Positions 34,389 to 35,115 of a stretch of 64,000 bases of DNA are shown piece by piece. The first letter of the stretch is position 1, and each line of letters starts with the position of its first letter. Source of the stretch: Escherichia coli (GTDB lineage: Bacteria > Pseudomonadota > Gammaproteobacteria > Enterobacterales > Enterobacteriaceae); NCBI RefSeq assembly GCF_044324875.1, contig NZ_CP172185.1; one strand, 5' to 3'. Made by a program: the position numbers and the translations under genes. Below the pieces are notes generated by a model. That model saw only the letters and a program-made list of their open reading frames with translations. It was not told the origin of the DNA and ran no database searches.

Positions 34389-34475
34389 TGGATTTACCTC
34401 TATATTTCCAGACATCTGTTATCACTTAACCTGTTACTGTCCTTCAACTGCAGGTGATTCAGGGGGGCCAGTCTA
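34389..34475 (-). mobile_element. Miniature IS2 derivative (both IS2 termini with almost no interior)
   Basis: TGGATTTACCTCTATATTTCCAGACATCTGTTATCACTTAACC (IS2 right end) and GATTCAGGGGGGCCAGTCTA (IS2 left end, reverse complement) within 87 bp. Confidence 0.6.
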
Positions 34476-34485
34476 ACCGTTAAGA

Positions 34486-35115
34486 ACACGTTCCCGAGAT
34501 GAGCGTTTCCGTTGTCGCTCATGTAAAACATGTTTTCCAGCTCACTTACTCTTGGTGAAGTCAGGAAACCCGGCGTTAAGGAGCAGATCGTTGAAATGGC
34601 ACATAACGGCGCAGGTGTCCGTGATACCCATGAACACTGAAAATCGGCATCAATACCGTCATACGGACATTAAAAATGTTTTCGCCCCGGCGGATAACAT
34701 CTACGCCAGTCGTTCACGCTGATGTTGCCCTTATCTTTGAAACTTGATGAGCAGTTAAATTTCGTTGGCAGCAAGGCGCAACAACACTGGTCTGCTTACA
34801 ACACTAAATTGCGGTGTGTTGGCTTATTCTTTCGGGCCACGGAATGATGAGACCTGTCGGGAACTGTTAGCCCTGTTGACTTCGTTCTATATCGGCATAG
34901 TGACCAGCAATGACAGGGGCTGCAACGTCAGAGAAGTGACGAAGGAGAAATACCTGACCGGTAAAATATTCACGCAACCTATTGAACTTAACAACCTGCC
35001 CCTCCGCACCCGCATCAAGCGGCTGGCACGTAAAACAATCTGCTTCTCGCGTTCCGTGAAAATCAACGAAAAAGTCATCGGTTCCGTCATTGAAAAGAAC
35101 ATGTTCTACTGATTG
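34486..35115 (+). pseudogene. Divergent IS1-family-like remnant (insA-like and insB-like parts)
   Basis: Translation contains …CRSCKTCFPAHLLLVKS… (InsA-like zinc finger); ORF 34765..35112 resembles the InsB C-terminus (…FSRSVKINEKVIGSVI…). Confidence 0.45.

Follow-up and report, generated by a model that had tools for sequence, protein, structure and literature searches.

The 87-bp unit between sitD and iutA in the 64,000-nt window (the whole stretch of DNA analyzed here) is an ordinary, internally deleted and decayed insertion sequence relic in a mosaic of IS fragments, and not an actively spreading miniature transposon. Very probably, the unit is the immobile relic of one insertion of an IS2-family element (IS3 family), with its copies produced by descent, segmental duplication, and recombination. 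The window is chromosomal DNA of E. coli, and positions 34100-35450 were 99.9-100% identical to ∼50 complete E. coli genomes, such as those of SMS-3-5 and SCU-115. The region belongs to an IS-ridden genomic island that starts at ynjA with a tyrosine integrase and holds the sit and iutA/iucDCBA genes. RefSeq had no annotation at 34389-34475, leaving the stump previously unannotated, and its iso-IS1 neighbor carried only a generic IS1 pseudogene label. Read from left to right, the sitD-iutA junction consists of a prophage relic, an ISL3 end, the IS2 stump, a flank from the YebF locus, and a truncated iso-IS1, set among the following features:

33244-34122, + strand: sitD, the last gene of sitABCD (from gene context).
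34240-34357, no strand assigned: prophage-associated DNA relic 3′ of sitD, not IS1 (75% identity over 118 nt, E 5e-13, to a prophage of strain GB089).
34358-34388, + strand: 31-nt outer end of an ISL3-family element ("X"), interrupted by the IS2-type stump; terminus TGTCAAC...GGCTCTTCC.
34389-34475, - strand: internally deleted IS2-family element, 87 bp, referred to as copy A; the + strand reads from IRR to IRL (BLAST, MAFFT, and matches to IRR and IRL).
34476-34497, + strand: 22-nt flank traveling with the stump, ACCGTTAAGAACACGTTCCCGA (alignments to the right flank of copies B, C, and D at a YebF-paralog locus).
34490-34496, + strand: heptamer GTTCCCG, common to the YebF-locus flank and iso-IS1, marking a microhomology junction (alignment).
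34490-35126, + strand: iso-IS1 relic without its first 123 bp, with several frameshifts and stops; IRR kept at ∼35106-35126 (BLAST, Pfam, PGAP).
35412-36646, + strand: pseudogene of an ISL3-family transposase, broken into three ORF pieces and lying between the IS1 relic and iutA (Pfam Zn_ribbon_ISL3 and DDE_Tnp_ISL3; PGAP annotation).
36711-38912, - strand: iutA, the aerobactin receptor gene (from gene context; iutA/iucDCBA run from 36711).

The initial annotation had described the unit as IS2 right-end and left-end sequences with almost no interior. Exact alignment to the IS2 termini upheld this description, with a good match at both ends covering the full 41 bp of IRR and the outer 22 nt of IRL. 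Within the unit, three parts were distinguished:

34389-34429, - strand: complete 41-bp IRR, with cleavage domain and protein-binding domain (39/41; domain map from PMC3299598).
34430-34452, - strand: subterminal stretch internal to IRR with weak likeness to IS2 (∼60-72% identity to IS2 and an IS2 variant; MAFFT alignment).
34453-34475, - strand: outer 22 nt of IRL plus one extra G; cleavage domain intact, inner part (IRL 20-42) gone (BLAST, alignment, PMC3299598).

The canonical 41-bp IS2 IRR matched 34389-34429 with mismatches only at positions 8 and 11, a match with 0 expected occurrences by chance. By BLAST, nt 1-49 of an IS2 copy of the K-12 lineage (L001) aligned to 34389-34437 (45/49, E 2e-14), and nt 1310-1331 of the same copy aligned to 34453-34475 (21/23, with one extra G); the terminal 13-mer of IRL, GGGGGCCAGTCTA, was found exactly at 34463-34475. 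When IS2, an IS2 variant (L003), and the unit copies were aligned together, right-end homology faded but persisted to about unit nt 65 and gave way to the left end's final 21-22 nt, with an overlap of only 1-2 nt at the deletion junction. IS2-family right ends in PLSDB likewise aligned with unit nt 1-65, at 81.5%. Missing from the unit are ∼1,244 bp, corresponding to approximately IS2 nt 23-1266 in standard numbering. BLAST against IS2 detected no IS2 coding homology in the window, including any orfA/orfB transposase with a programmed -1 frameshift, and neither a second unit copy nor a full-length IS2 was found within these 64 kb. Like IS2 of E. coli (IS3 family, IS2 group), the unit has a 41-bp IRR and the outer IRL with its 11-bp cleavage domain in correct mutual orientation; unlike IS2, it has lost orfA, orfB, and IRL 23-42, and it has no 5-bp target duplication. 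Because the subterminal sequence is only ∼60-72% IS2-like, the parent was a diverged relative rather than canonical IS2.

It is very unlikely that the likeness to IS2 is coincidental, or that two unrelated IS2 end stumps were joined by a chance rearrangement. Such an accident would suit a region that is a dense mosaic of IS fragments, and an independent IS2-like right-end stump does lie near iutA on ColV-type plasmids (L004). However, the two ends of the unit are correctly oriented to each other and both reach their exact termini, a 39/41 match to IRR is not expected by chance, and one junction is kept in copies that are 17-20% diverged, for which a single deletion is the simplest explanation.

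We counted the unit at ≥80% coverage and found it at 111 places in 61 of 5,426 complete E. coli genomes, with one to four places per genome, all of them chromosomal. No PLSDB plasmid covered ≥80% of the unit, the plasmid matches being ordinary IS2-family right ends only. Two search patterns, one for a general IS2 mini-element and one specific to this subterminal sequence, gave 0 matches in 100,044 species-representative genomes, and a metagenome scan of 241 million records recovered six contigs with the unit, all of junction types A, B, or C. The diagnostic 36-mer of the unit is ACATCTGTTATCACTTAACCTGTTACTGTCCTTCAA. In strain 135 (NZ_CP080260.1), which has four places for the unit, three were located and correspond to copies A, B, and C; a search within 20-50 kb of A and B in this strain found copy C and no copy beyond it, a shortfall that counts against the relic reading. 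Besides copy A of the window, three further copies define the junction types:

Copy B, L005, in a second island (ter genes, S6 peptidase, YebF paralog): 90.8% identical to A; ISL3 end at left, full YebF flank at right.
Copy C, L013, in the island of the window, 42-51 kb upstream and inverted: 82.8% identical to A; left flank on the cytochrome b562 side, right flank as in A and B.
Copy D, L023:2917-3000, in strain 23CRST011, with the same junction in strain L26: copy C with four changes in the first 27 nt.

Copies A, B, and C are 80-91% identical to each other and have one deletion junction in common, and all copies A-D carry the right flank ACCG.TAAGAACA.GTTCCCGA. A single deletion junction and a single right flank in every copy point to descent from one insertion rather than to independent transpositions. 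The left flanks differ among copies exactly from the IRR tip outward (ISL3 end, cytochrome b562 side, or ISEc48-like side). The 5-mers flanking the unit are TTCCT/ACCGT for A, TTCCT/ACCGC for B, and ATCGG/AGCGC for C, so that the 5-bp target-site duplication is absent; a K-12 IS2 copy used as the control had GTAAT on both sides. No empty (unoccupied) site for copy C was found in the E. coli collection.

Is the unit, then, a miniature transposon? The initial annotation had called it a MITE-like deletion derivative. The derivation from IS2 by deletion stood, as did the MITE shape, but amplification, independent flanks, and target duplications did not, with one copy in the window and one to four per carrier genome. 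Our literature search for an IS2-derived MITE returned nothing relevant. Bacterial IS-derived MITEs, for example MITEAba12, have been reviewed (PMC10969869). Like them, the unit is short (87 bp) and non-coding, has IS2-type terminal inverted repeats at both ends, and has lost its interior. Unlike them, it is unamplified, has one flank in all copies rather than many independent loci each with its own flanks, lacks target-site duplications, and has one repeat cut below the transposase-binding region. With respect to that last difference, the ends of IS2 are composed of an outer cleavage domain, 11 bp long, and a protein-binding domain on the inner side, and the transposase anchor was placed at IRL positions 20-42 by footprinting and genetics (PMC3299598). 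The cleavage domains survive in the unit (IRL 11/11, IRR 9/11), and the outer 22 of 42 nt of IRL are kept, enough for ancestry and not for an intact end; a second transposase-binding end is probably missing, in that the anchor is absent from the unit sequence. Given the loss of this anchor, taken with the census, we infer that the unit is not mobilizable. What counts against immobility is that both cleavage domains and the full binding domain of IRR, the donor end of IS2, survive, such that IS2 transposase might mobilize the unit in trans.

We considered whether the unit, at present or in the past, has been a true MITE of the IS2 group, non-autonomous and mobilized in trans by IS2-family transposase, with the left flanks representing separate insertions. 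Its small size, imperfect terminal inverted repeats, and freedom from ORFs are compatible with this reading, as are the two intact cleavage domains and whole IRR, the three or four left-flank contexts that start exactly at the terminus, and the full-length IS2 copies that occur in the same island of some strains (SMS-3-5). However, the right flank is identical in every copy, a pattern that independent insertions cannot yield, and no target-site duplication is present. With no more than four copies per genome, the unit is confined to genomes that have these islands; its IRL anchoring region 20-42 is deleted; and recombination with an IS2 variant accounts for copy D, whose outer 27 nt were turned to variant sequence. 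On balance, we regard a true MITE as improbable and favor the immobile relic.

The hybrid copies bear on how the left flanks were exchanged. In copy D, the first 27 nt carry four IRR states of the IS2 variant (G3, C10, T18, and C27), and the remainder is copy C; these states are consistent with recombination against a full-length IS2. Relative to SCU-115 (L024 8735-19277), copy D corresponds to the loss of 10.5 kb, with the deletion endpoint exactly at the IRR tip. No full-length IS2 was detected at the left breakpoint of copy D in SCU-115, and 53 matches represent the unoccupied left flank. Strain GF43 (NZ_CP172127.1, L006:3001-3086) has a second hybrid, whose left flank and body are those of A and whose G-run and right flank are those of B. 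It joins sitD straight to YebF/ROK/GDPD genes, a junction from which iutA, the IS1 relic, and the ISL3 pseudogene are absent. In strain CM2 (L008:2501-2996), copy A is absent: the sitD flank runs into a 31-nt ISL3 end and on into an ISL3 body 99% identical to window 47540-47163. This arrangement indicates recombination between the 28-nt ISL3-end fragment (window 34358-34385) and another copy of it (as at 47513-47540). In these respects the stumps resemble IS copies that act as portable homology, where hybrids mark rearrangements: A with B in GF43, a putative IS2 variant with C in the 10.5-kb deletion of copy D, and two ISL3-end copies in CM2. They differ from the usual case in the very short perfect identity, 13-36 nt within a 65-87-nt repeat. 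The probable crossovers in D and GF43 fall within perfectly matching stretches of 13-25 nt; such lengths are short for recombination that depends on RecA and count against reading the hybrids as recombinants.

Left junctions that switch exactly at the IRR tip would also fit one-ended events mediated by transposase. An IS2-family transposase could still act on the unit through the intact IRR, in which case the left-flank swaps would be one-ended, transposase-driven rearrangements and not homologous recombination. We assign this possibility a low probability, but if it were true, a "dead" IS stump would be an active hotspot reshuffling the sit-aerobactin virulence island.

For the immobile relic, the copies and junctions suggest the following order of events. 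An IS2-family parent, which differed from canonical IS2 by ∼8% across the outer 49 nt and by more toward the interior, would have inserted once, adjoining the YebF-paralog gene of a genomic island. An internal deletion of ∼1,244 bp would then have spared ∼65 nt at the right end and 22 nt at the left. Later copies would stem from descent, segmental duplication between related islands, and recombination, and not from transposition of the small unit. In this scheme the 65-nt right-end segment can recombine with full-length IS2, each event giving a new left flank that starts at the IRR tip, while the left-end segment, at 22 nt, does not suffice for such an exchange, so the right flank stays unchanged everywhere. 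For copy D, a transient full-length IS2 insertion upstream presumably underwent recombination with the relic within the 65 nt of right-end homology. For copies A and B, an IS2-type element probably inserted 31 nt inside an ISL3 element and then recombined with the relic, placing an ISL3 end at the left. In the lineage of the window, the right flank would later have fused at GTTCCCG to nt 124 of an iso-IS1, removing the left 123 bp of that element. A point of weakness that counts against the relic reading is the lack of a known full-length parent for the subterminal sequence; none with the relic's own subterminal sequence was found in the scans of species-representative genomes and metagenomes.

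It is extremely unlikely that the cell has recruited the unit for a function of its own, for example to act on sit or the genes downstream as a promoter, a terminator, or a small RNA. The unit is 100% conserved in ∼50 genomes, as such a function might predict, though the whole 1.35-kb region is equally conserved. Promoter-like and terminator-like sites were no commoner than in shuffled sequence, the unit folded no better than its shuffles (z = +1.13), and 33900-35600 had no Rfam match. Moreover, the unit is set among pseudogenes, was lost without replacement in CM2, and is rearranged in GF43.

To the left of the stump, the GB089 counterpart of 34240-34357 is unannotated DNA between tail-fiber genes of a prophage, and homology stops exactly at 34357. 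The adjoining terminus, TGTCAAC...GGCTCTTCC, recurs in X copies with differing outside flanks: at window 47513-47540 (reverse complement), at two plasmid loci (L010 and L011), and in CM2 (L008). Since TGTCAAC is the common starting point in five contexts whose outside flanks differ, it is the terminus of the element. For the same reason, we rejected the 31-nt piece as part of an IS481-like HTH gene that runs through window position 47541. A reading of 34300-34388 as the 5′ part of insA, suggested by the motifs HC..NS and NGKSGTS, was also rejected; prophage homology covers 34240-34357 and the ISL3 end covers 34358-34388, and the motif likeness is spurious. Separately, a GC-rich inverted repeat, GTCGGGGGAAGGTATTGAAAGTCCCCGAC, lies at 34165-34195, ∼45 nt past the sitD stop. 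It could be a candidate terminator of the sit operon, though it is without a T-run and was not called by the terminator scan.

To the right, 34476-34497 is, judging from the alignments, identical by descent to the right flank of copies B, C, and D, and this flank is joined to the iso-IS1 at the microhomology GTTCCCG. The stump had been said to abut the IS1 relic; instead, these 22 nt of YebF-locus flank lie between the two, with IS1 homology beginning at 34490. Nor does the IS1 element end at 35115, as had been proposed, its right terminus being 35126. The relic had further been described as recognizable at motif level only, a view at odds with its DNA identity of 88-90% to iso-IS1. It matched the iso-IS1 of Shigella flexneri pCP301 (L007) at 580/646 positions (90%) and single copies in 637 E. 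coli genomes at 88-90% identity, with every alignment starting at 34490. Pfam detected both DDE_Tnp_IS1 (PF03400, E 5.8e-38) and HTH_Tnp_IS1 (PF12759, E 2.3e-12) above the gathering score. The neighbor of the stump belongs, at ∼90% nucleotide identity, to a known iso-IS1 subgroup, of which it is a 5′-truncated and frameshifted copy.

Of iso-IS1, nt 124-764 are represented in the relic, with the IRL, the insA start, and the first half of the zinc finger gone. Aligned with pCP301, the relic shows 14 gap columns; each of its three frames contains stops, and PGAP labeled it "IS1 family transposase, frameshifted, missing N-terminus." DNA homology to the IS1 family and the InsA and InsB domains are present; the full pair of terminal repeats and intact reading frames are not. 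The relic resembles the iso-IS1 of S. flexneri pCP301, E. coli NC101, and APEC O18, which we take to be of the IS1N-type subgroup, in its 88-90% identity over 637 bp, InsA HTH, DDE domain, and right repeat. It differs from them in lacking the first 123 bp and in having as its left edge a microhomology junction to unrelated DNA. In E. coli and Shigella, this iso-IS1 subgroup may have largely died out. The reference copies in E. coli NC101 (L021) and pCP301 are themselves annotated with frameshifted or split ORFs.

Beyond annotation, the relic has little consequence; its value lies in a precise reading of the sitD-iutA junction in the chromosomal island. Junction types A-D and the hybrids can serve as markers for segment exchange and loss between the sit-aerobactin island and a related tellurite-resistance island in E. 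coli lineages from birds and humans. Remnants as short as these still mark recurrent rearrangements of several kilobases in a virulence island, and the junctions and hybrids illustrate that deletions of at least 10 kb can be seeded by them.

Several minor observations concern the islands and the aerobactin locus. In strain 135, the second island (L022, 2.70-2.74 Mb) holds the ter operon, an S6 peptidase, an AbgT transporter, a YebF paralog, a ROK regulator, and sodC. It shares with the island of the window (24055-27354 and 46224-47540) patches of 99% identity, in the sodC/IS3-fragment segment, as well as an ISL3 copy of 93% identity. The window island and this ter island are mosaics built from common segments. 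On the ColV-type IncF plasmid pMTY2805_IncF (NZ_CP128952.1), a separate IS2-like right-end stump of ∼70 nt (L004:1601-1672) sits between an IS1 copy and iutA. It is unannotated and matches nt 1-54 of the window unit at 83% identity; the plasmid-borne aerobactin locus is therefore also bordered by IS2-family debris. Finally, RefSeq annotates iucD as frameshifted in the islands of SMS-3-5 (L002:16840-18173) and strain 135 (L012:24551-25884), and the aerobactin operon would be defective there.
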